A stretch of 18,120 nucleotides of DNA, taken from NCBI GenBank assembly GCA_016926735.1, contig JAFGOA010000006.1:1-18120 (forward strand), written 5' to 3'. Positions within the stretch are counted from its first letter, which is position 1. Each line of letters begins with the position of its first letter. A program made the position numbers and the translations under genes. Source of the stretch: Promethearchaeota archaeon (GTDB taxonomy: Archaea; Asgardarchaeota; Lokiarchaeia; Sigyniarchaeales; SOKP01). Below, piece by piece: positions 1,904 through 17,531 of the stretch. A model generated the notes under the pieces. It ran no database searches. It had not been told where the DNA came from and saw only the letters and a program-made list of their open reading frames with translations.

Positions 1904-4900
1904 GTGTTTATATTGTTCGCAAATGAATTATATCAATATATATTATCCATGTTGAGTGGTTCGCATGAATCTTGTAGACGAATCTATTTACATCAAAAAC
2001 CATCCAAATATTTTATTATAGGATCTTTAGCAGATTATAGTAAAGATAATTCTGGGAGTCCTACTGGAGCCAATGAATTACAAGCAAAAAGTGCTTTAAA
2101 ACATTATGCTATGGCTGTAATGTTTTTAGTTGATAAAAATATACAAGAAAAGATTAAAATAAAACCTTCATGCTCGGTTTTCTATAAGATTTTCCCTACA
2201 TTTCAAGAACAATCTGAATATGTTAATGAAGTTAATAATAGTGCGGCATATGATAGCATAAGAAATGATCCCGGATTTAAAATCTATCATAAGAGAAAAG
2301 ATTGCAATTTTGATACAATTGAGATGGATCTTGAGACTAATGAAGAAAATCTCAAATTTGCAAATATATTAAATGATATTTATGCAGATTTGGATTTATT
2401 TAGGAAGGATAAGGAAATAAAAGAAGAACTGAAATCTAGAAATATAGAGAATTTTTTTGATGTAAAATGGTTAAAGGATGAATCTACCTATAATAGTACC
2501 TTAGATATTCTTAGAAAAGCATCTTTAAGAAAAAAGTACAATTGGAATGCAATAATCGAAGTAGAAAGAGAATCTTTTGATAAAGAAAAAGATATTATAA
2601 CTGTTAGAATGATTAATAAGACTATATTTAAAGGTAAAAAACCTAATTATGAGACTTTTCTTTTTAACTGCTACATTGAAATAGATTTAGGATTAAACAC
2701 TATTTATCCATTTGAGTATACATTTAATCATGAGGGATTTAATTACAGAGAACACGCCTATTTAAGAGCTCTGAATTGCCAAGGAATATATGATTCTTCC
2801 AAAAATCTGATTACAACTTTACCATATGCTATACATAATCAACTAAAAAAATCTCCAAGAATATCTATTAATAGCGTTTCTGCTAATTTTAATGATTTAA
2901 AGACTTCAATTCACTCGTTAGAAAATCTCTTATCAGAAATGAACAGTCAATATAATAAATACATAAATCATTCAATTTATAAGGATCTATCGCATTTTTA
3001 TCATGATCAATTCAAAAATGAAACAGAAAATTTTAAACTAATAATTAATCGCTTTAATGATGGAATTAAGATATTAAAATCAAATCAAAATGCGCTAAAA
3101 GCATTCAGTCTAATGAATGAAGTCTTTGAATTATCAAGCAATTATAGCGGATGGAGGATATTTCAAATAGTGTTTATAGTGATGATTCTTCCAGATTTAG
3201 TTGATTTAAAAAAAAATCGCAATCTAACAGATATTATCCATGTAAATACTGGAGGAGGTAAGTCTGAAGCTTATTTTGGTCTAGTTATTTTCTTATTATT
3301 CTGGGATAGATTAAGAGGAAAGAGTATGGGTGTTTCAGCGATCTCAAAATTTCCTCTCAGGATGCTTTCTATACAACAACTCCAGAGAATAGCAAAGATT
3401 ATTACTTTAGCTGAAGAAATAAGAAAAAGACATAAGATAGTAGGTATTCCTTTTTCGGTTGGATATTATGTGGGTGTTTCTGAAGAATTTCCACGGCATA
3501 CATATGATAAAATTCAAGAGATCTTAATAAATAAGGGAAAAGGTAAACAAATACAAGGAGTTTTATTGGATTTGTGTCCATTGTGTGGAGCAAATATAGA
3601 ATTAGAAGTTGATGAAAAAAAGCACTCGATATATCACAAGTGTTCTAATCCTATGTGTAATAATATCTATTATCTATATTTTACTAATTCGGAAATATAT
3701 CGATTTCTTCCCTCTCTTATTGTATCAACTGTTGATAAACTAGCAAGTGTTGCACTTAATAGACGATTTAAGAATCTTATTGGGGGAAAAGTATCATTAT
3801 GTCCTGAAGATCATGGATTTACACCTATAAATGATTCTTGTGAAGTCAAGATATCTAATACTAAATCATGTGATAAAATAACAACACCATTTAATGATAT
3901 TATAGAGGGTCCTACATTAATAATACAAGATGAAATGCATTTATTAAGGGAGGGATTTGGGACAATAGATTCTCATTTTGAGGGGCTTTTAAACACACTT
4001 TTACAAAAGTTTTCAGGAAAAGAATTTAAATATATCTCTATGACAGCTACAGTTTCTGGAGCGAAAGAGCAAATAGATCATCTGTATGGAAAAGAAATAT
4101 TTATTTTTCCAGGAAATTTGCCTCGTGGATATAATGAGGAAGATGACTTTTTCTTTGAATTTATACAATCAAATCAAATTAAAGAGATTCAAAGAATTCT
4201 TATTGGACTCAAGCCAAACATGAGAGATAATCAATATGCATCTTTATTAACTATTCATCATTTAGCAGATTTCTTAAAAAATATTATAAATGATAAAAAA
4301 TATTATGTTAAAAAGTTTGGGATAACATTACCAAATTTAGAAGAGGAATTAAAAAAATATAAATGTATTTTGACTTATCATGGAAAAAAAGCTGATGTAT
4401 TTGGAATGAATTATTTCTTACATACAGTTGTTACTTCAAAATTAAAAGCTTTTGATATAGTAGGTAAACCTCTTACAGGTGATAATACACTTGCTGAAAT
4501 TAAGGAGGCTATAAATACAATACAAACATTTCCAAATGATAACTTAAATGAAAAGAAAATTCATTCAACTTTTGCTACAAGTATAGTATCTCATGGAGTT
4601 GATATAGACAACTGGAATTTTATGATTTTTCAAGGAATTACTCGAGATACTTCTGAATATATACAAGCATTAAGTAGGGTAGGAAGAAAATACACAGGAA
4701 TAATATTTTTATGGTTTTATCCTAATAGAGTAAGAGATTTAAGCTATTATAAAAATTTTAACTTATATCATAATATTCTACAACAAAGAGTAGAGAGAAC
4801 TCCAATATCTCGATGGACTAAGCTGGGTTTCAAGCAAACAATAACGTCTATTATTTGTGGAGCAATTTTAAACTATATTAGTAATATAATTGAAAAACCT

Positions 4901-5236
4901 CTTTATACGGTCGAAGATGTAAATAAATTTTTTGCTGATCCTTCTCATAGGAAATTATTAAAAGATTTTATAACTGAAGCATATTATGTGGACATGCCAA
5001 GGGTAGGATCTCTGTGGATAAAAGAGAGAATAGGTGAAGAAATCGACGATAGACTCAATTATCTGGCTAAATATACTGGAAGTGCTGAAAAAAACTTTTT
5101 TCCAAATGCATTGCGAAAAAATGAAGATAAATATTTCAAGACGCAATATGGTATGAGAGGCATACAAGAGGAAGTAACACTCAAACTGAATGAAAATTAT
5201 ACAGGTTTAGTACAAAAATATATAAAAAAGGAGTGA
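1904..5236 (+). CDS. drmA: DISARM-type SF2 helicase (DrmA-like)
   Basis: 1110 aa. Walker A TGGGKSEAY (3248-3265), motif Ia FPLRMLSIQQLQR, GYYVG, Zn site CPLCG...CSNPMC, STVDKLA, motif II LIIQDEMHLL, motif III MTAT, motif V ATSIVSHGVDI, motif VI EYIQALSRVGR. It is followed by DUF1998 and PLD genes. Start codon uncertain (GTG 1904 or TTG 1913). Confidence 0.88.
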   Translation: MFILFANELYQYILSMLSGSHESCRRIYLHQKPSKYFIIGSLADYSKDNSGSPTGANELQAKSALKHYAMAVMFLVDKNIQEKIKIKPSCSVFYKIFPTFQEQSEYVNEVNNSAAYDSIRNDPGFKIYHKRKDCNFDTIEMDLETNEENLKFANILNDIYADLDLFRKDKEIKEELKSRNIENFFDVKWLKDESTYNSTLDILRKASLRKKYNWNAIIEVERESFDKEKDIITVRMINKTIFKGKKPNYETFLFNCYIEIDLGLNTIYPFEYTFNHEGFNYREHAYLRALNCQGIYDSSKNLITTLPYAIHNQLKKSPRISINSVSANFNDLKTSIHSLENLLSEMNSQYNKYINHSIYKDLSHFYHDQFKNETENFKLIINRFNDGIKILKSNQNALKAFSLMNEVFELSSNYSGWRIFQIVFIVMILPDLVDLKKNRNLTDIIHVNTGGGKSEAYFGLVIFLLFWDRLRGKSMGVSAISKFPLRMLSIQQLQRIAKIITLAEEIRKRHKIVGIPFSVGYYVGVSEEFPRHTYDKIQEILINKGKGKQIQGVLLDLCPLCGANIELEVDEKKHSIYHKCSNPMCNNIYYLYFTNSEIYRFLPSLIVSTVDKLASVALNRRFKNLIGGKVSLCPEDHGFTPINDSCEVKISNTKSCDKITTPFNDIIEGPTLIIQDEMHLLREGFGTIDSHFEGLLNTLLQKFSGKEFKYISMTATVSGAKEQIDHLYGKEIFIFPGNLPRGYNEEDDFFFEFIQSNQIKEIQRILIGLKPNMRDNQYASLLTIHHLADFLKNIINDKKYYVKKFGITLPNLEEELKKYKCILTYHGKKADVFGMNYFLHTVVTSKLKAFDIVGKPLTGDNTLAEIKEAINTIQTFPNDNLNEKKIHSTFATSIVSHGVDIDNWNFMIFQGITRDTSEYIQALSRVGRKYTGIIFLWFYPNRVRDLSYYKNFNLYHNILQQRVERTPISRWTKLGFKQTITSIICGAILNYISNIIEKPLYTVEDVNKFFADPSHRKLLKDFITEAYYVDMPRVGSLWIKERIGEEIDDRLNYLAKYTGSAEKNFFPNALRKNEDKYFKTQYGMRGIQEEVTLKLNENYTGLVQKYIKKE

Positions 5237-5243
5237 TAAATTA

Positions 5244-7172
5244 ATGAATTTAAGATTTATAGATTTTCCTGCTAGTAGTGCTGTTTTTCATATAACAAAA
5301 GGCCTTCTTTTTAATAGATTAATTGCATTTAAAGTACGTTCTATTATCCCTGATGAAAATAATAAAAATATAGAAATTCACAATAAACCAAGATTAAAAG
5401 AAAGATTATTTGAAAGAATTAAAGATAAATATAATGCAAGATTGAGAGCTACTTCTAAACCCTCAGAATATAATTTTAAAGATGAATATAAAAAAAAAAT
5501 GCTAATCAAAGATGAAAAATTGGACATTTTTGAATTGAAACTATTTCAAGTATCAGGAGGTATTGAAGATGATTTAGATCTAAGAGATATTGGAGGTGAT
5601 TTTGTAATATATCCTATGACATTTGTATGTAAGAATTTAAATTGTGGAGATCTTCAAGTAATAAAGTATAAAGATATTGATAAATTCAACCCTAAAAAAT
5701 GTAAAAGAAAAGGTTGTAATGGAGAATATGAGCAGTTAAGTCTAATGCTTTTTTGTGAGACTTGTGGAAATGTACGCCCATTTGAGTATTCATATAAAAA
5801 TGAGGAAATTACTCTTATCAGAGAAAGTAAAGACTCAATTTCAACATGGAAAGTAAGAGCAAAAACCCAACCTCCTATAGATGTATTTAGACTTATGTGC
5901 AATCATATAGATCCTCATGATAAAGGACCTTATAATCTTAGACAACGAATTTCCTCATCTAAACCCACTCAGCAAACACCGCTTACAGTAACAGAAGGGT
6001 CAATATATATTCCTGTAACCGAAACAAATATAGATATTCCAACGGCACCTGATATAGAGATGGGAGATTTAGAATATATTTTAAATGCCATTGCTCTAGA
6101 TCTATTCCCGTTTCTCTCAGTGGTTTTAAAAAAAGCAATTACATTAGAGATAATTCAAAAGTTATATGAAGGATTTAACAATGATACTGTTAAAGAGATG
6201 ACATATAATATAGATCCAATGTTTCAAGGAATATCTGATGATGAAAAAGAAAAAAAATGGAAAGAGAAATTTTTTATTGATAAAATTGAATATGTGATTA
6301 AAGATTTAAAACAAAAATATCCAAAAGAGAAAAGAGAACTTCTAAGAGAGATAAATGACTTTCACGCCTTGACTGGAAGACTTGGTCTATCAAGATTTGA
6401 AACAGTATCCTTTCAACAATATGTAGATGAAATAATTGAACCAATTAAGAAATCAAATAAAATTAGAGAATTTAATAAAATAAAAACAGATTATTATATT
6501 GACAATTTAATCTATGTTCCTAATGTAACTTTAATTAATGCGTGTTATGGAGTTATTAATGGAATTTATAAATTTTATGAAGAGGGGTTTGTTCCTCATT
6601 TTAATCCCATTTGGAAGAATTTATCAGATCCCAGTAAAGGATTTTATGCTTATTGTTATCCTTATGAGACAGAAGGTATTATTCTTCAATTAAATAAAAT
6701 AAAAATATGTGAATGGTTAAAAGAGAATGAAATCATATCTGAAATACCAATTGATGTGGATGATTTTTTCTCTTCAATTCAATTTGGTGATCGAGCATAT
6801 AAAGAAGTCTCAATATTATTGCATACACTTTCTCATTTACTTATGAGAAATTCCTCACTCTATACAGGACTTGATTTACAATCATATGGTGAGAAAATTT
6901 TCCCTACAACAGCAGCTATATTCTTTTATTCCTCATCAAGTATTAATATAGGGGGATTGCAATTTATATTTGAAAACGAACTATTTAATTGGTTTGAGGG
7001 TATAAAATATGATGTTAGAGAATGCACTTTAGATCCAAATTGTATAAAAGAAAAAGGAGCTTGCTTTGCTTGTATGTATGTACCTGAATTTGTTTGTAAA
7101 TATTTCAATCAAGATTTAAATAGAGATGTTTTTTTGGGAAAAGTAAAGTACAAAAAAGGATTTTGGAAATGA
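5244..7172 (+). CDS. drmB: DUF1998 (MrfA-like Zn-binding) protein, DrmB-like
   Basis: 642 aa. C-terminal LLHTLSHLLMR ... CTLDPNC...GACFACMYVPEFVCKYFNQDLNR is the DrmB/DUF1998 Cys cluster, and there are N-terminal Cys pairs. It starts 7 nt after the drmA stop, with GGAGTGA as RBS. Confidence 0.88.
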   Translation: MNLRFIDFPASSAVFHITKGLLFNRLIAFKVRSIIPDENNKNIEIHNKPRLKERLFERIKDKYNARLRATSKPSEYNFKDEYKKKMLIKDEKLDIFELKLFQVSGGIEDDLDLRDIGGDFVIYPMTFVCKNLNCGDLQVIKYKDIDKFNPKKCKRKGCNGEYEQLSLMLFCETCGNVRPFEYSYKNEEITLIRESKDSISTWKVRAKTQPPIDVFRLMCNHIDPHDKGPYNLRQRISSSKPTQQTPLTVTEGSIYIPVTETNIDIPTAPDIEMGDLEYILNAIALDLFPFLSVVLKKAITLEIIQKLYEGFNNDTVKEMTYNIDPMFQGISDDEKEKKWKEKFFIDKIEYVIKDLKQKYPKEKRELLREINDFHALTGRLGLSRFETVSFQQYVDEIIEPIKKSNKIREFNKIKTDYYIDNLIYVPNVTLINACYGVINGIYKFYEEGFVPHFNPIWKNLSDPSKGFYAYCYPYETEGIILQLNKIKICEWLKENEIISEIPIDVDDFFSSIQFGDRAYKEVSILLHTLSHLLMRNSSLYTGLDLQSYGEKIFPTTAAIFFYSSSSINIGGLQFIFENELFNWFEGIKYDVRECTLDPNCIKEKGACFACMYVPEFVCKYFNQDLNRDVFLGKVKYKKGFWK

Positions 7173-8002
7173 AAGATAATAATTATGATGATATTATAAA
7201 GATTATAAAAGATATTCTGAATAATGATAATGAAATATCTGTAAATCAACTAATTAATTCAAGAGACTTAGCTAATTATGAATATGAAAATAAATTATCT
7301 CTTACAAAATACCTTTTATCCATAGGTCTATTGGAATTAAAAGACCAAAATTCAAATAATACATTAGAATCATTAGTTGTTAGATGGAATAAAGAAAAAA
7401 ATGATTTTGTAGTTCCAAAAAAGAAAATTCTTAATTTTAATACGATAAGAATCTGTATTACTCTTCCTCCCTTTAATATTTCCGGATTAATTAATCAGAT
7501 GAAAAAATATAATTTTCAAATGAATTCACTTGTAAAAGAATTTTCAGATTTATTTTTGAGAGCTAAGACTTCGATTAAAATTTGCTCTCCCTTTTTGGAA
7601 TATAATGGATTTGCTTATTTTGAGGAAATATTAATTAATAAGGTAAGACAAGGAGTTAAATTGCAAATTCTTAGTCGACAAATAAAATATGATGATAAAG
7701 ATTCCCGTTTTGGTGATTTTAAAAACATTTTTAAAGTATTTTTAGATAAAGGGTTAGATAGATCAATAAATATTAGAAATTATTATTTTCAATCAAAAGA
7801 CAAGTTACTAATGAGCAGTATTCATGCAAAAATGATATTAATTGATGATTATTTTGCTTATATTGGGAGTGGAGAAATTCGGAAAAATAGTTTTAAAAAG
7901 AATTTAGAGATTGGTATAATCCTTAGTGGTTCAAAAGTTTCTGAACTCGTTTATATATTTGATAAATTATTTTCAAAATCAGAGGTTATGAATTTTGTCT
8001 AG
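7169..8002 (+). CDS. drmC: Phospholipase D-family nuclease, DrmC-like
   Basis: Single HKD motif HAKMILID-x6-GSGE (7823-7876) plus IKICSPF and NLEIG. The ATG at 7169 overlaps the drmB stop (ATGA), so it is a more likely start than the TTG at 7163. Confidence 0.85.
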   Translation: MKDNNYDDIIKIIKDILNNDNEISVNQLINSRDLANYEYENKLSLTKYLLSIGLLELKDQNSNNTLESLVVRWNKEKNDFVVPKKKILNFNTIRICITLPPFNISGLINQMKKYNFQMNSLVKEFSDLFLRAKTSIKICSPFLEYNGFAYFEEILINKVRQGVKLQILSRQIKYDDKDSRFGDFKNIFKVFLDKGLDRSINIRNYYFQSKDKLLMSSIHAKMILIDDYFAYIGSGEIRKNSFKKNLEIGIILSGSKVSELVYIFDKLFSKSEVMNFV

Positions 8003-10620: not shown

Positions 10621-12045
10621 ATGAATATTTTATTAATAGAGCCAAAATTCCCCAGACCATGCAAAAGTAAGAATCATAACGACTTTTTACCAATAGGGTT
10701 AATAAAATTAGCCTCATATCATATAAGACAAGGAAATGCTATTTGTATCATTCGAGGTGAAGAAAAAAAAGAAAATATTCAATTTGAATATAAAAATGGT
10801 CGGATAAATAAAGATAAAGAGCCTCATTTGATATTAATTACATCTTATTTTACATATTGGTCTAAATATGTAAGATCTTCTGTTAAATATTATAAAACGC
10901 TATTTCCTAACAAAAAGATTATTGTTGGTGGGATATATGCTTCACTAATGCCAGATCATTGTAAAAAATATACTGGGTGTGATGAGGTTTATGTTGGAGT
11001 CTATAAAGAAGCTGAAAATATAAAATTGTCATATAAATATCTCGAAAGGCATTATGGTTCTATAGATTATCAAATAATTCATACAAGTCGAGGATGCATA
11101 AGACGTTGTGAATTTTGTGGAGTTTATAGAATTGAACCTAAATATACATATAAAGAATCGATTAACCATGAAATAATTAAAAAAAAGATAATATTTTATG
11201 ATAACAACCTTTTAGCTAATCCTGCTATTGAGAATATCCTTTCAGAACTTTCATATATGAAAGAAAAGCAGAAAATTCTTTGGTGTGAGGCTCAAAGTGG
11301 AATTGATGGAAGAATTTTATTAGAGAATCCAAATTATGCTTCTCTTTTAAAAAAAGCAGGATTTAAAGATATTAGAATTAGTTGGGATGGACCTTTAAGT
11401 GATGCTCCTAAAATAAAAAAACAGCTATTATTGCTTGAAAAAGCAGGATATCAATTACACCGCCATATTTTTGTGTTTATGATTTATAATTGGAATATCC
11501 CATTCGAAGAGATGGAAGAAAAAAGAATTAAGTGCTGGGAATGGAAGGTACAGATCTCAGACTGCAGGTATAGACCACTTAATCAGAAATATGATCGGTA
11601 TAATGGACAAAAATATATTATTGGTCAAACTGGTCGAGATTATCATATTCATAAATCTTCAGGATGGACAGATGAAAATATTCGTATATTTAGGAGACAC
11701 ATAAGACGTCAGAATATATGTGTAAGGCTGAGAATTAATTTCTATTCTAATGCTATTGAAAGAGCCTTTTTAAATAAATCTGTAAGAAATATTCTAATTG
11801 ATATTGCTAAATATTATTCTATTGATAATGCTGAAACGATCTTGAAAAAGTTGAAAATACCATACTGGTTTCCAGAAAATTACAATGGAAATGGTTATAC
11901 CTTATCAGAACAGCAGATCTTTGAAGAATTCGAGAAATTTACTCACAAAAGAGCTTTAAAGAATGGTAATGTTAGAACTTCCTCTTTTAAAGTATGGAGA
12001 AATCAGATACAAAAAAAGGTTTTAACTCAGTTAGAATTATTATAA
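10621..12045 (+). CDS. Cobalamin(B12)-binding-domain-type radical SAM protein
   Basis: 474 aa. TSRGCIRRCEFC carries the CxxxCxxC motif (11095-11118), followed by FYDNN. N-terminal B12-binding-like Rossmann features: ILLIEP, LPIGLIKLASY, ITSYFTY, KIIVGGIYASLMP. It starts 10 nt after the previous stop. Confidence 0.88.
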   Translation: MNILLIEPKFPRPCKSKNHNDFLPIGLIKLASYHIRQGNAICIIRGEEKKENIQFEYKNGRINKDKEPHLILITSYFTYWSKYVRSSVKYYKTLFPNKKIIVGGIYASLMPDHCKKYTGCDEVYVGVYKEAENIKLSYKYLERHYGSIDYQIIHTSRGCIRRCEFCGVYRIEPKYTYKESINHEIIKKKIIFYDNNLLANPAIENILSELSYMKEKQKILWCEAQSGIDGRILLENPNYASLLKKAGFKDIRISWDGPLSDAPKIKKQLLLLEKAGYQLHRHIFVFMIYNWNIPFEEMEEKRIKCWEWKVQISDCRYRPLNQKYDRYNGQKYIIGQTGRDYHIHKSSGWTDENIRIFRRHIRRQNICVRLRINFYSNAIERAFLNKSVRNILIDIAKYYSIDNAETILKKLKIPYWFPENYNGNGYTLSEQQIFEEFEKFTHKRALKNGNVRTSSFKVWRNQIQKKVLTQLELL

Positions 12046-12175
12046 ATCCCTTTCAAATTATAATGTTTAGAAGTATTATCTTTTTGATAAATTTTATTTA
12101 AAAGTTTTTATATTGAAAATATGTATTTAAAGAAAGATTGTTTGAAATAAAATTAAATATTGATAGGTAATATTA

Positions 12176-13618
12176 TTGGTAAATATCTTTTTAAGCTATT
12201 CAACTAAAGATGCTGAATATTTTAAAATAAGTGATATAGCAGAACAACTTGAACTTTATAGCGAAATTGATGAAGTTTATTATTGGCAAGAACATTTACA
12301 TGATAATATTTCTAAATATATGAATGATTATATGGAGAAAAGTGAAGTAATGATTTTATTTTGCTCCAAAAATTCTAAAAATTCTCATTCTGTAGAGGAT
12401 GAATGGACAACCCATGATCATCATAAAAAGCCTATTATTCCAATTTTTGAAAATCTTGAAGATGTACCATATAAATTGCAAAAAAATTTTGGTTGTGAAT
12501 TTACTTCTTTAAATTTTGATAATTTTATAAAGAAATTATATAGCATTATCTTAAAGAAAATAAATCTCGATTCTGTAATAAAAGAAAAGAATCAATATAA
12601 TGATCTGAAAAATGAAATTGTTTACTATCATGGTGTTAAAATATATCAAATTGAAGCAGAAGTTCTCCTAGAAATAGAACAAAAGATTGGATGTCAATTT
12701 ACTTTGTTAAATGAAAGTGAAGATGATGTCGAAAAACTTGAGTTTGAAGTAGAGGATAATCATGTTGTAGAATTAAATATCCAGCATTGGGAAATAGAGA
12801 CACTTCCGATAAATTTTGGAGATTTAGTTGAATTAAAAGAATTATATTTATCTGATAATGAATTATTTGAACTTCCTAAAAGTATTGAGAAAATAATCTC
12901 ATTAGAAATACTTAATATATCAAATAATCAGATTGATAATCTCCCGATTAATATTGGTAATTTAATCTCTCTTAAAGAATTAATAGTATGCTACAATAAT
13001 ATTAAAATTATACCAGATGAGATTAGAGATCTTAGTTCTTTAACTCGATTAGATCTTTCGGACAACAAAATTGAATATATTCCTGAGAGTATTGGAAATC
13101 TCTCTTTACTCTCAAGAATTGATCTTTCATATAATAACCTTAATTCTTTACCAGAGAATATTGGAGAACTTAAAAATCTTAAAATATTAAATTTAGCGGG
13201 TAATAACCTTTCTTTTCTACCTGAAAGTTTTAAAAATCTCATAAATATTGAATATATAAATTTAAATTTAAATTTCCTTTCGTATCTACCAGAAACTATT
13301 GGGGAACTTAAAAATCTTAAAATATTATCTTTAGCGGATAATAAATTGTCTTATTTACCAATGGGTATAGGAAATCTTAGCTCTTTATATGGATTGAATC
13401 TTGGTCATAATATACATATAAGAAATTTACCGAGATCAATTGAAAATCTCAAAAATCTTGAGATTTTAATTCTATCCCAAAATCCTAACTTGTTATTACC
13501 AAGTTATCTTCAGAAAAATACATCATTAGAAGAAATAGATATATCAGATTGCGGTTATAGAAAAATACCTAAATTATTAGAGCCTCTTGATAGACGAGGG
13601 GTTAAAATTTTAATATAA
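12176..13618 (+). CDS. TIR domain - leucine-rich repeat protein
   Basis: N-terminal TIR (IFLSYSTKD...MILFCSKNSKNSHSVEDEW...KPIIPIF) and about 11-12 C-terminal 23-aa LRRs (e.g. IPESIGNLSLLSRIDLSYNNLNS). TTG start with AGGT upstream. Confidence 0.93.
   Translation: MVNIFLSYSTKDAEYFKISDIAEQLELYSEIDEVYYWQEHLHDNISKYMNDYMEKSEVMILFCSKNSKNSHSVEDEWTTHDHHKKPIIPIFENLEDVPYKLQKNFGCEFTSLNFDNFIKKLYSIILKKINLDSVIKEKNQYNDLKNEIVYYHGVKIYQIEAEVLLEIEQKIGCQFTLLNESEDDVEKLEFEVEDNHVVELNIQHWEIETLPINFGDLVELKELYLSDNELFELPKSIEKIISLEILNISNNQIDNLPINIGNLISLKELIVCYNNIKIIPDEIRDLSSLTRLDLSDNKIEYIPESIGNLSLLSRIDLSYNNLNSLPENIGELKNLKILNLAGNNLSFLPESFKNLINIEYINLNLNFLSYLPETIGELKNLKILSLADNKLSYLPMGIGNLSSLYGLNLGHNIHIRNLPRSIENLKNLEILILSQNPNLLLPSYLQKNTSLEEIDISDCGYRKIPKLLEPLDRRGVKILI
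13149..13360 (+). repeat. Nucleotide-level duplicated LRR unit, 138-bp offset
   Basis: ggagaacttaaaaatcttaaaatattaaatttagcgg at 13163 versus ggggaacttaaaaatcttaaaatattatctttagcgg at 13301. Confidence 0.8.
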
Positions 13619-14995: not shown

Positions 14996-15868
14996 ATGAA
15001 TGAAATAGATCAATCGAAAAATAGATATGACAATATTTGTCTGGATATTTTAAAAAAACTACCAGAAATAATTTCTCTGTCTTTATTTGATGTAAATGCA
15101 AACCTAATAACACACATGGGCGGAAGTCAAAATAATGAATTAAATTTAGATAGTTTAATAATCTCTGCTGGGATATTTGTCTTATCGGCACAAAAGATTA
15201 TAAATCTCTATAATTTAGATAATCTAGACCAATTATTGATTAGAACCGGTGATAGGATTCTTCTTTTCGTAGCTGCTGGATCAGATCGTATACTTTTAGC
15301 TCAAGCCAGTAGAGATATTAAATTAGGGCTTCTCTTTTTAGACTTAATAGGCACTTGTAGAGAGATAAGTAAAATTCCTTACGAAATGCCAAAAAGAAAA
15401 ATTAACTTGGAAAATAAGTTAGAGACCCTTGAGAAAGAATTTATTGGAGACTATAAAATATTTATTAGTTATGCTAAAAATGATTCTAGCTATTTTAAAA
15501 TAAAAGAGATTGCAGAAAATTTGGAAAATAATAATCCAGATGTTAAAGTTATGTATTTTGAAAGAGATAAAATAGGAGGAGAAGATATTTTAAACTATAT
15601 GGAGCGTGGAGTTCAATGGTGTAATGTATTTGTATGGTTCCATTCTGAGAATTCAATGAATTCGAAGGCAGTTATTGATGAATACAAAATGGCAAAATAT
15701 CTTGGGAAGGATATTATATCAGTCACGGAAGATTTCAATTCGCTTCCTTTAAGTGCAAGAGTTACATGGGCAATATTATATGAAAATGATATTCAAAAAT
15801 TAACGAAAAAACTGTTAAAAGATATGAAAGAATATGATTTAAAGAATGCAACAATCATTCAACAATAA
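14996..15868 (+). CDS. Roadblock/LC7 (LAMTOR/MglB-like) - TIR domain fusion protein
   Basis: The N-terminal ~125 aa have the Roadblock pattern (PEIISLSLFDVNANLI...LDQLLIRTGDRILLFVAAGSDRILLAQASRDIKLGLLFLDL). C-terminal TIR: YKIFISYAKND...FVWFHSENSMNSKAVIDEY. Confidence 0.85.
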   Translation: MNEIDQSKNRYDNICLDILKKLPEIISLSLFDVNANLITHMGGSQNNELNLDSLIISAGIFVLSAQKIINLYNLDNLDQLLIRTGDRILLFVAAGSDRILLAQASRDIKLGLLFLDLIGTCREISKIPYEMPKRKINLENKLETLEKEFIGDYKIFISYAKNDSSYFKIKEIAENLENNNPDVKVMYFERDKIGGEDILNYMERGVQWCNVFVWFHSENSMNSKAVIDEYKMAKYLGKDIISVTEDFNSLPLSARVTWAILYENDIQKLTKKLLKDMKEYDLKNATIIQQ

Positions 15869-16305: not shown

Positions 16306-16459
16306 TCTAAGCAACCTCACATATAAGGTGAGAGATCAAATAGACCATAGTATTTAAAGAAAAATAGGTTCAAAACACTTGTTTTTGCACCCTATCCTAA
16401 TTTTTTCTTTAAATAGTTACTTCAATACAATAGTATAAAACTGGCTGTGAGGTACTATT

Positions 16460-16603
16460 ATGAGTATAAAAAAAGAAGTTGTCTATTATAATCGCACTTT
16501 ATTTAATGACTTACGAAGGGCAATTATCGAGCATAGAGCTAAAGATTATGAAGCTCACATAAAAGAGATTCTTAAAATAAATAGAAAAAAAGTTGGATTT
16601 TAG
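16460..16603 (+). CDS. Small hypothetical protein (47 aa)
   Basis: Hand-translated MSIKKEVVYYNRTLFNDLRRAIIEHRAKDYEAHIKEILKINRKKVGF; RBS GTGAGGT ends 6 nt upstream of the ATG. Confidence 0.55.
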   Translation: MSIKKEVVYYNRTLFNDLRRAIIEHRAKDYEAHIKEILKINRKKVGF

Positions 16604-16742
16604 CAGTTTTTATTGCGTATTTAAAGAAAGAAGTAAATAGAATTGTTCCTTTATAAATAACGTGAAAATAATGGGAAGAAGATTATATTTCCATAGTGAA
16701 ATTTTATTTTTTATTTAAATATGCAGACAATAGTGTTATTTT

Positions 16743-16904
16743 ATGAGTATTGAAAAAAATACATTTCTAAATAAGCATATTTTAATTTGCCCCTTTTCCA
16801 ATAGCTGTATTCTTCCCAAGTCAGAAGTGATTTGTGATTTTCCTTGCTATAAAATTTGCCCCGAATATCAACTAAGAGGAGAAAAATTAAAGAAAAGCAA
16901 ATAA
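16743..16904 (+). CDS. Small Cys-rich protein (53 aa), putative metal-binding
   Basis: Hand-translated MSIEKNTFLNKHILICPFSNSCILPKSEVICDFPCYKICPEYQLRGEKLKKSK, with five Cys including CPF and CPEY. Confidence 0.6.
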   Translation: MSIEKNTFLNKHILICPFSNSCILPKSEVICDFPCYKICPEYQLRGEKLKKSK

Positions 16905-17330
16905 AGAGCAATTATAAATATTATTCAAAGAGAATTAGTATAATAGCACTTTTTAATTACCATTAAAATATCATTTTTACTTAATCTGATTGAAAAAGGA
17001 TTGATCATAGGAAGATCAGAACTTCATATTTATCATAGTAATCCCTTTGGTATTCTCTCTATTTATACCATTTTAACACCTTCTACTCTTCTTTTTCCTA
17101 TTAGAATTCCATAAGTATAGCTGTTGAAATGTCAATACAACCAGTCTTTACAGAAGATAGGTTCAAAGCACCTAGTCAATGTCTGCAAGTATCTTCTATT
17201 TATAGGATTAAGAGTGTTTTCAGGGGTTTTTGGATGATTTGATTATTTTCCTTTGAGTTTAAATACTCCATTTGTAATTATATAGTAATAAAATCAAATA
17301 TAATTAACCTAAAAAAAGAGATAACAACAA

Positions 17331-17513
17331 ATGAGTAGTATAATAAAAAAGAAAATACTTACCCAAGAGGAAATAGAAGAAATGATGGAGAGAGCTGTTA
17401 TGGATGATAGTATTTCATGTCCCTACTGTGAATATGGGGATTTAGAGCCTGATTATGAGCTATGCCCAGAGTGTTCGAAGCGAAACCCCTTAAAAACTTT
17501 AGGGTTAATCTAA
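17331..17513 (+). CDS. Small zinc-ribbon protein
   Basis: 60 aa with CPYC-x11-CPEC. Confidence 0.75.
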   Translation: MSSIIKKKILTQEEIEEMMERAVMDDSISCPYCEYGDLEPDYELCPECSKRNPLKTLGLI

Positions 17514-17531
17514 GGGAGGTGATAAAAAACC

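Follow-up and report, generated by a model that had tools for sequence, protein, structure and literature searches.

Ofir et al. are said to have described class 2 DISARM in 2018, with the order DrmE-DrmA-DrmB-DrmC-DrmMII, and Xiong reportedly described in 2019 the PbeABCD and CxC-ABC-DndE systems, which go together with DndCDEA phosphorothioation or with methylases. In the available portion of PMC11529989, class 2 DISARM consists of drmABC together with drmE and the C5-cytosine methylase drmMII, and the accessible part of a reappraisal from the Aravind laboratory (PMC10853773) pairs the Pbe/CxC-ABC systems with phosphorothioation or methylases. Here we analyze a contig of a Promethearchaeota archaeon (JAFGOA010000006.1, assembly GCA_016926735.1), the whole of which, 18,120 bp, is referred to as the window; the parent genome is 3.88 Mb in size and 99.3% complete, with a G+C content of ~27%. 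The gene under study encodes a radical S-adenosylmethionine (SAM) enzyme and is the fifth and last gene of a tightly coupled DISARM class 2-like operon, DrmA-DrmB-DrmC-DrmE-radical SAM. DISARM is defined by its methylase, and a variant with a radical SAM enzyme in its stead hints at a DNA mark beyond the reach of ordinary SAM methyltransferases. We propose, as a reading evenly balanced between right and wrong, that the enzyme is the self-marking DNA modification module of a methylase-less DISARM variant.

A DISARM-like operon that ends in a radical SAM gene

The five genes follow each other closely. An 8-nucleotide (nt) gap separates drmA and drmB, drmB and drmC overlap by 10 nt, drmC and drmE overlap by 8 nt, and the radical SAM gene starts 10 nt after the drmE stop (Table 1). 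The N-terminus of the radical SAM protein is in register with those of its homologues in the alignment. The AlphaFold2 model of DrmA residues 1-360 matches only the Serratia DrmA of DrmAB (7s9v_A, Foldseek E 1.4e-7). A modification-reader domain of the EVE/PUA type was considered for the same residues and rejected, the solved DrmA N-domain being the only match, and this outcome is neutral on the sensing of a mark. DrmB reached 56 bits with the NCBIfam model DrmB_fam, under its 240-bit cut-off. The 871-residue protein encoded by the fourth gene had no direct Pfam or PADLOC match; its homologue at locus L007 carries Pfam DrmE_C (E 1.3e-13), and two further orthologues do likewise.

Four of the five sequence-level features of class 2 DISARM (DrmA, DrmB, DrmC and DrmE) were found and the fifth, DrmMII, was not. 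The 12 open reading frames (ORFs) of at least 100 residues that were considered on the contig include no DNA methyltransferase. Because the operon has no DrmMII and the genome has no C5-methylase match (PF00145) above cut-off, we would file the operon by its gene content as DISARM-like, not canonical DISARM. The radical SAM enzyme appears to stand in the place of DrmMII, an analogy drawn from the published DISARM definition, which includes a methylase. Within the DrmE clade itself the swap was not seen in progress: the 15 metagenome loci described below carry the radical SAM enzyme or neither enzyme, never the methylase. On gene content, the radical SAM protein is the only apparent candidate for a modification role in the operon of the window.

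Motifs, domains and fold of the enzyme

The CxxxCxxC motif of the radical SAM protein (C159, C163 and C166), read as intact in the first-pass annotation, is kept in every row of an 86-row family alignment, on which the conservation counts below are based. With the Pfam profile Radical_SAM (PF04055) the protein scored 21.6 bits, below the gathering cut-off of 29.5. Since many homologues carry precomputed matches to PF04055 and/or to the B12-binding profile PF02310, the protein, by motif and fold, belongs within the radical SAM superfamily, if as a divergent member, and does not fall outside it. Its sole PADLOC match (PDC-M51A, E 4.6e-4, over the CxxxCxxC) was set aside as generic radical SAM similarity, because a MiaB-like neighbor protein matches the same model.

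An AlphaFold2 model computed from a 20-sequence alignment (mean pLDDT 85.6, pTM 0.81) has a Rossmann domain at the N-terminus, with a radical SAM barrel behind it. Over residues 1 to ~400 the model superposes on enzymes with a Rossmann and a radical SAM domain at Z 18-24. The top structural neighbor is AprD4 (6fd2; Z 23.6, root-mean-square deviation 3.2 Å, 336 residues), followed in the same terms by MgmA (9ccb; 22.7, 3.4 Å, 312), an MtaB model (9a6d; 21.6, 5.7 Å, 318), TsrM (6wtf; 21.0, 4.4 Å, 338), MiaB (7mjw; 20.8, 4.1 Å, 308), CysS (9n1d; 20.1, 3.8 Å, 337), RimO (4jc0; 19.4, 4.2 Å, 306) and OxsB (5ul4; 18.4, 3.3 Å, 308). Structure prediction had been proposed as a check of the first reading, and it gave a confident model with AprD4, MgmA, TsrM and MiaB among the best neighbors in the PDB. 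Single-domain radical SAM enzymes, viperins among them, match residues 147-369 only (Z ~10-12), as the cores of SuiB, NifB, viperin and MoaA illustrate (Z 10-12), and GDGT-MAS aligns at Z 10.8 only. A search of the PDB with the sequence profile of the protein gave no match. The likeness to MiaB, RimO and MtaB (Z ~20) lies in domain arrangement only. The protein has no UPF0004 or TRAM match in Pfam and the cysteines of its N-domain are not conserved (C114 in 54 of the 86 rows, C120 in 70); it is not a methylthiotransferase, because it has neither an N-terminal Cys triad nor a TRAM domain.

The N-terminal domain had been called B12-binding-like, and the model upholds this: the B12-binding domain of AerR superposes on residues 1-130 with Z 11.9. 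PF02310 itself matches residues 64-130 at E 6.5e-5 and 23.2 bits, under the gathering cut-off of 32.1. T74-S75-x and G103-G104 are near-invariant in the family, in a spacing that we take to be that of the SxL...GG signature of cobalamin-binding domains. Use of cobalamin is plausible because the same genome encodes CobS and nine proteins with PF02310 above cut-off.

In the barrel, all 86 rows have C315, R316 and R318, and all but one have C305. Four extra cysteines had looked invariant in the 20-row alignment and an auxiliary [4Fe-4S] cluster was considered; with C222 in 53 and C367 in 59 of the 86 rows this candidate was dropped, and C305 and C315 alone hold. The first-pass annotation had further described a basic C-terminal extension that could bind nucleic acid. 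Both strings given there occur in the protein, WTDENIRIFRRHIRRQNICVRLR spanning residues 349-371 and VWRNQIQKK spanning 458-466, and the sequence is basic. The Arg-rich part, however, is conserved enzyme body and not extension, because R358 and R362 are conserved across the family (85 of 86 rows each; W349, D351, R358, R362, N365 and I366 are all at least 97% conserved), and residues 351-370 form a long helix packed after the barrel in the model. The true tail, residues 421-474, is filled in ~5% of the 86 rows and, in the 20-row alignment, in the nine closest rows only. The argument for nucleic-acid binding from a basic tail is weak, as the tail is lineage-specific and the protein is basic throughout (isoelectric point 9.53; family median 9.3, range 7.1-9.9). 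The invariant motif D314-C315-R316-x-R318-P319 together with C305, K301, R358 and R362 may be a better candidate than the tail for binding a phosphate-rich substrate.

Partner cassettes across bacteria and archaea

Relatives of the radical SAM protein number 1730 at E <= 1e-3 in a database clustered at 90% identity, and among representatives at 50% identity 160 clusters fall at E <= 1e-30 and 1070 at E <= 1e-10. The best 120 relatives are 50-72% identical to the window protein, and their hosts include Asgard archaea, methanogens, anaerobic methanotrophic archaea (ANME), Thermoplasmatota, Kosmotogaceae and Nitrospirota. We surveyed 79 loci with a relative, taking one genome per species, calling and clustering the ORFs and scanning the representatives. 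Their hosts are spread very widely over the phyla of bacteria and archaea, with lineages of the candidate phyla radiation (CPR) and DPANN among them.

In 63 of the 79 loci one of six restriction-like partner sets lies beside the radical SAM gene. In 12 of the remaining 16 the sequence breaks off less than 1 kb upstream, and 4 show different neighbors. The commonest set is a GHKL (HATPase_c_3) ATPase with or without a 333-residue protein (23 loci), then PbeA (a PLD-helicase) and PbeC (a DndD-like ABC ATPase) with a 146-residue protein (17 loci), and DrmA/DrmB/DrmC with DrmE or a DrmE-related 1060-residue protein (11 loci), the N-terminus of which matches DrmE at an hhalign probability of 99.2%. 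A ParB-N-like protein with an SNF2 helicase was found at 5 loci, a HerA-type ATPase at another 5 (joined in two, which are MADS-like, by genes for a type I methylase and for specificity), and a DndB/DpdB-HEPN fusion at 2. Every one of these sets supplies the motors, sensors and nucleases of a kind of system that as a rule depends on a partner for DNA modification. In DISARM and MORC/GHKL systems the usual partner is a methylase, and in DpdB-type systems it is 7-deazaguanine.

The radical SAM enzyme is typically encoded by the terminal gene of its operon, since coupling is tight on the upstream side and nearly absent on the downstream side. An upstream ORF lies on the same strand in 60 of the 69 loci that have one, and 45 of these 60 pairs overlap or stand no more than 30 nt apart (median gap 0.5 nt). 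On the other side, a downstream ORF is present in 60 loci, and in just 4 of them it is both close and co-directional. At the 11 DISARM-type loci no DNA methylase was found among the 43 of 73 neighbor ORFs that were scanned, the skipped ORFs being mostly short, and the flanks are housekeeping genes such as those for ribosomal protein S6e and aIF-2. A metagenome search with the DrmE alignment gave 15 loci, 11 of them informative. The radical SAM gene directly follows drmE in 6 of the 11, a GHKL gene and a distant radical SAM gene stand in front of drmA in one, and three related loci, together with one short one, have neither a radical SAM gene nor a methylase.

At least one carrier is a complete isolate genome, that of the cultivable Methanococcoides sp. 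FTZ1 (locus L048), with the gene order DrmA-DrmB-DrmC-c9-radical SAM. Just downstream of its DISARM-radical SAM cassette, positions 13066-21230 hold two Cas1 genes (E ~6e-67 each) and a family B DNA polymerase gene, a stretch that looks like one or two casposons. In a Thorarchaeota genome (L039, 10001-12500) two full-length radical SAM paralogues stand in tandem beside a c19-c20-HerA set. Several Asgard copies are split or contain stop codons (loci L108, L122 and L126 of the L046 genome are also named under this observation), and inteins interrupt the relatives P0227, P0264 and P0275, with Intein_splicing and LAGLIDADG or HNH domains and a match to the radical SAM profile on both sides.

Viral, plasmid-borne and fused copies

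A relative is present on seven IMG/VR contigs, with no partner set detected beside any of them. In L101 the large terminase gene comes directly after the radical SAM gene, and in L097 the latter lies beside primase and exonuclease genes. L098 and L099 have, immediately after it, a DNA methylase gene matching the C5 methylase M.HhaI (E 5e-47). In L100 an HhaI-like C5 methylase gene (E 1.3e-47) lies ~550 nt upstream, tail-sheath and PCNA-like genes are present, and dCTP deaminase-like and PAPS-reductase-like genes are nearby; the radical SAM reading frame of this contig is split. Such solo copies beside DNA methylases follow the pattern of the orphan methylases by which phages escape restriction. 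The viral rows nest inside cellular clades of the tree, L101 as sister to a Pbe-linked row (99% support) and L097 inside a GHKL clade (97%). A protein atlas lists family clusters with Uroviricota as their commonest known phylum, which is a lead only.

Distant relatives, at 25-34% identity to the window protein, extend the picture. In Marinitoga camini virus 1 such a gene adjoins those for HerA and a NurA-like protein. The conjugative plasmids pR132505 of Rhizobium (L104) and pNL1 of Novosphingobium (L105) carry sets of a DGQHR (DndB-like) protein, a radical SAM protein of ~540 residues that is 25% identical, and an ATPase, with ParB-N, helicase and PIN-like genes alongside. The presence of an oxygen-sensitive enzyme class in these aerobic alphaproteobacteria was unexpected.

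Fusions were found in a sister subfamily at ~30% identity to the window protein. In P0225 residues 25-345 make up a full C5 DNA methylase (PF00145, E 5e-57), joined to a radical SAM part (residues 407-669), P0263 has a radical SAM part followed by a C-terminal piece of PF00145, and in P0219 the region behind the radical SAM part matches ParB_N weakly (E 0.005). Among the 120 matches listed for P0225 there was no second full-length methylase fusion, the other long matches being methylase-only or radical SAM-only.

Phylogeny and mobility

A quick maximum-likelihood tree of 89 rows (IQ-TREE, with SH-aLRT values as the only support) separates a mostly GHKL-linked clade from a DISARM/Pbe clade. Within the latter the two contexts interleave, for example with L003 and L006 (DISARM) grouping with L018 (Pbe) at 95% support, and host taxonomy is scrambled. 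A sample of 301 genomes from the phylum of the window gave 15 with a relative (E <= 1e-30), and the partners within the phylum are of the Pbe, ParB-SNF2, DISARM, HerA and GHKL kinds; in its genus one of three other genomes has one, and that copy is 42% identical. The patchy occurrence in the phylum, the scrambled host taxonomy and the mixed partner sets suggest that the gene behaves as a mobile accessory module exchanged between cassettes. Across domains of life the enzyme is ~50% identical, in comparison with 23-40% for DrmB and DrmE. So much stronger a conservation than that of the partners fits an invariant substrate such as DNA.

The surrounding contig

The operon is closed by an AT-rich spacer, after which the TIR-LRR gene begins (Table 1). 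Since three genes with TIR domains flank the DISARM-like operon, the contig is a defense island. Before the operon, an ORF of 293 residues (690-1571, + strand) has no family match; its last ~35 residues resemble the start of the GIY-YIG nuclease motif (..YYIYKMRL..HYIGQS..R..H..) and then run into a stop, and it may be a truncated or decayed gene. The 1.2 kb before the DUF6908/DUF1249 gene (16321-17531) have no ORF of at least 100 residues, no tRNA and no Rfam match, and the tRNA and Rfam scans of the whole window gave no match either.

Table 1. Features of the window and of the radical SAM gene, with positions counted from the first letter of the contig.
Feature	Position	Strand	Basis
radical SAM gene	10621..12045	+	uninterrupted ORF, ATG start, 474 residues
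N-terminal Rossmann, B12-binding-like domain (~residues 1-135)	10621..11025	+	PF02310 sub-threshold; AerR fold match
radical SAM partial TIM-barrel core (~residues 147-372), with D314-C315-R316-x-R318-P319 and C305	11059..11736	+	fold, conservation
CxxxCxxC, radical SAM [4Fe-4S] cluster site	11095..11118	+	86/86 rows
Arg-rich helix W349-R371 (WTDENIRIFRRHIRRQNICVRLR), family-wide	11665..11733	+	86-row conservation, model
lineage-specific helical tail, residues 421-474 (~55 residues)	11881..12042	+	column occupancy 0.05-0.34 (86 rows)
drmA, YprA-type helicase, first gene of operon	1904..5236	+	PADLOC DrmA E 1.7e-115; Pfam Helicase_C, DEAD
drmB, DUF1998-type DrmA partner	5244..7172	+	PADLOC DrmB E 6.3e-30
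drmC, PLD-family nuclease	7163..8002	+	PADLOC DrmC E 6.2e-21; Pfam PLDc_2 E 1.2e-13
DrmE-family protein, 871 residues	7995..10610	+	26% identity, E 3e-76, full length, to L007 protein
AT/T-rich spacer closing the operon, 130 nt	12046..12175		read from sequence; next ORF (TIR-LRR) from 12176
TIR protein, CAP12/Pycsar-type, cut by contig end	1-483	-	PADLOC PDC-S35, E 2e-29
TIR and leucine-rich-repeat protein (TIR-LRR)	12176-13618	+	Pfam/PADLOC scan
290-residue protein, TIR domain at C-terminus, no family on N-terminal half	14996-15868	+	Pfam/PADLOC scan
DUF6908/DUF1249 protein, far contig end	17532-17939	+	E 6e-25

Discussion

Then, what would a radical SAM enzyme do at the end of a DISARM-like operon? 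We favor, with middling confidence, a role as the self-marking DNA modification module, because the enzyme is the sole candidate for that role in the operon, is better conserved than its partners, is exchanged as a unit and occurs solo in viruses beside methylases. Its [4Fe-4S] cluster and SAM would generate a 5'-deoxyadenosyl radical, and cobalamin in the N-terminal Rossmann domain would probably be used as well. The enzyme would thereby place a covalent mark of a non-canonical kind on the DNA of its own host, with a methyl or alkyl group bound to a carbon of a base as the most plausible form, and DrmAB, DrmC and DrmE would spare DNA that carries the mark and act on unmarked incoming DNA. Cobalamin-dependent C-methylation or alkylation would be the most economical chemistry, given the Rossmann domain, T74-S75 and G103-G104, and the CobS and nine B12-binding proteins of the genome. 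Cytosine may be the target, in view of the recurrent association with C5-cytosine methylases. The DNA substrate, the self-protection by the mark, the use of cobalamin and the chemistry are what we infer from these observations. The earlier suggestion that the enzyme acts on DNA or nucleotides in defense gains in part: the DISARM operon, the six kinds of cassette, the solo copies in viruses and the C5-methylase fusion all speak for it.

Several observations weigh against this proposal. Each of its functional steps is argued from gene context. The radical SAM gene is not obligatory for a DrmA-DrmB-DrmE core, because L092, L093 and L094 have that core with no DrmC, methylase or radical SAM gene, and the gene is not always a stand-in for a methylase, as some of its loci have ordinary DNA methylases of type I (HerA/MADS-like), Dam-like (c30) or type III-like (c40) kind. 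Methylase fusions, by the clusters found, seem to be rare and to fall beyond the core family; those with a C5 methylase amount to two single clusters of the sister subfamily, which has neither C305 nor C315. Apart from the variable C-terminus, the family has no obvious variable target-recognition domain, and a nucleotide triphosphate would suit the invariant arginines no less than the backbone of DNA. As to cobalamin, PF02310 stays under threshold in the window protein; the top fold neighbor, AprD4, is a dehydratase that is not known to use cobalamin; and relatives occur in CPR and DPANN genomes, which are not generally known to make cobamides. The neighbors of the L092/L093/L094 core, recorded here for completeness, are an SMC-like ATPase, a UvrD helicase, two DUF488 genes, DuOB and NERD.

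A bolder form of the proposal is one that we put forward tentatively, as rather more apt to fail than to hold. In it, the cobalamin-dependent radical SAM enzyme would write a new carbon-alkyl DNA mark and would serve as a universal plug-in 'M' module that protects self DNA for at least six mechanistically different restriction-like machines, namely the DISARM, Pbe/CxC-ABC, GHKL-ATPase, ParB-SNF2, HerA and DndB-HEPN systems of anaerobic bacteria and archaea, and viruses would have captured it repeatedly for anti-restriction. The mark of such a module might be directed at cytosine or be built on 5-methylcytosine.

Among the alternatives to a self-marking role, the one that survives best, unlikely as we consider it, places the chemistry on free nucleotides, with either a viperin-like antiviral nucleotide (one that terminates chains or is poisonous in another way) or a modified deoxynucleoside triphosphate, later incorporated into DNA, as the product. 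The invariant basic residues K15, K301, R316, R318, R358 and R362 in or near the barrel could hold a triphosphate, viperin cores align to the barrel region (Z ~11), and the viral gene of L100 sits in a nucleotide-metabolism stretch with its dCTP deaminase-like gene. The two-domain fold is, however, unlike that of viperin, which matches the core only. The partner sets, moreover, already hold DNA nucleases and helicases and are without a modification function only, and the partners and fusions (C5 methylase, ParB/DndB-type) are of DNA-binding or DNA-modifying kinds and not nucleotide kinases or phosphatases.

Radical chemistry could instead make the enzyme an effector that damages or cross-links foreign DNA once a helicase or ATPase has recognized it. 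Spore photoproduct lyase is a precedent for a radical SAM enzyme acting directly on DNA, and the gene is coupled to sensor and motor genes throughout (co-transcription being read from gene spacing). Yet viral solo copies beside their own methylases and packaging genes are hard to explain in this way, and DrmC, PbeA and the HEPN nucleases already cover the effector role, which leaves the idea improbable.

We give a similarly low chance to a substrate in RNA (a tRNA or rRNA base, as for MiaB, RlmN and Cfr) or in a partner protein (as for MgmA and RimO). A partner-specific protein substrate is unlikely because at least six partner sets with no relation to each other share one near-identical enzyme, and because the DISARM and Pbe contexts interleave, and methylthiotransferase activity is contradicted by the missing Cys triad and TRAM domain. 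On the side of such substrates stand the close folds of the protein methylase MgmA (Z 22.7), the tRNA enzymes MiaB and MtaB (Z ~20-21.6) and the protein-modifying RimO (Z 19.4), and the conserved extra cysteines C305 and C315, which recall the two catalytic cysteines of RlmN and Cfr; the contexts, fusions and viral neighbors, in contrast, are all DNA-related.

That the gene is a housekeeping lipid or cofactor enzyme and a mere bystander of the defense operon, the outcome by which the first-pass annotation was to be refuted, is highly implausible: the similarity to NCBIfam models of the MJ_1487, ladderane-lipid and BchE types is weak, at 17.0-20.6 bits against equivalog cut-offs of 251-481, no metabolic context was seen, the gene is confined to few genomes of its phylum (15 of 301) and genus (one of three others) in a phylogeny that ignores taxonomy, and the context statistics, with tight coupling to defense genes in 45 of 60 co-directional cases, contradict it.

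The self-marking reading, if extended to the plug-in 'M' module, would add a new class of epigenetic DNA chemistry beside methyltransferases, phosphorothioation and 7-deazaguanine. The enzyme does not depend on accessory genes in its cassette. It stands at the end of six defense cassettes and occurs solo in viruses, so one biochemical result would explain many unannotated systems of anaerobes, Asgard archaea included, and could add another DNA modification to the known list, along with the enzyme that writes it, the proteins that read it and its counter-use by viruses.

How, finally, does the system compare with those already described? The radical SAM core is shared with viperin (pVip) and QueE, and neither of these has the N-terminal Rossmann domain or the same gene partners; no viperin or QueE family match to the protein was found at E <= 0.01 in Pfam, NCBIfam or PADLOC, and QueE is not among the structural matches listed. 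The earlier statement that the architecture is neither viperin nor QueE agrees with this in part, through the Rossmann domain and the core-only match of viperin. With the class B radical SAM methylases (TsrM, MgmA, CysS, TokK and OxsB) the enzyme shares the order of Rossmann domain and barrel (Z 14.6-22.7 over ~310-360 residues), whereas its identity to them is 12-15% and the AprD4 and MiaB/RimO folds are equally close; by the architecture of the model it would be of class B. The solo viral copies beside terminase, replication genes or HhaI-like C5 methylases resemble phage orphan DNA methyltransferases, a likeness seen in gene context alone, and differ from them in belonging to another superfamily. 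Ophion, as far as the accessible part of its description goes, is a different radical SAM system from the DISARM-linked family, and the available portion of one preprint presents a three-gene neighborhood of HSP90 and a radical SAM protein with no function assigned. In the full-text literature, supplementary files and subscription journals lying outside the scope of the search, no account turned up that links this family to DISARM or Pbe as a partner.

The likeness to Pbe is that the same radical SAM family ends PbeA-PbeC-small-protein cassettes (17 of 79 loci) and that Pbe and DISARM are both normally paired with a DNA-modification module; the difference is that the window carries DISARM genes and not Pbe genes. 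The part of PMC10853773 available to us makes no mention of a radical SAM partner of Pbe. Class 2 DISARM is the closest relative: homologues of DrmA, DrmB, DrmC and DrmE lie in one tight operon, and the N-domain of DrmA has the fold of 7s9v. Unlike class 2 DISARM, the window has no DrmMII or other methyltransferase, its fifth gene is radical SAM, the order is A-B-C-E-radical SAM, and the genome is archaeon-like. The pairing of DISARM with a radical SAM enzyme is a variant of DISARM, with a real chance of a new kind of chemistry.

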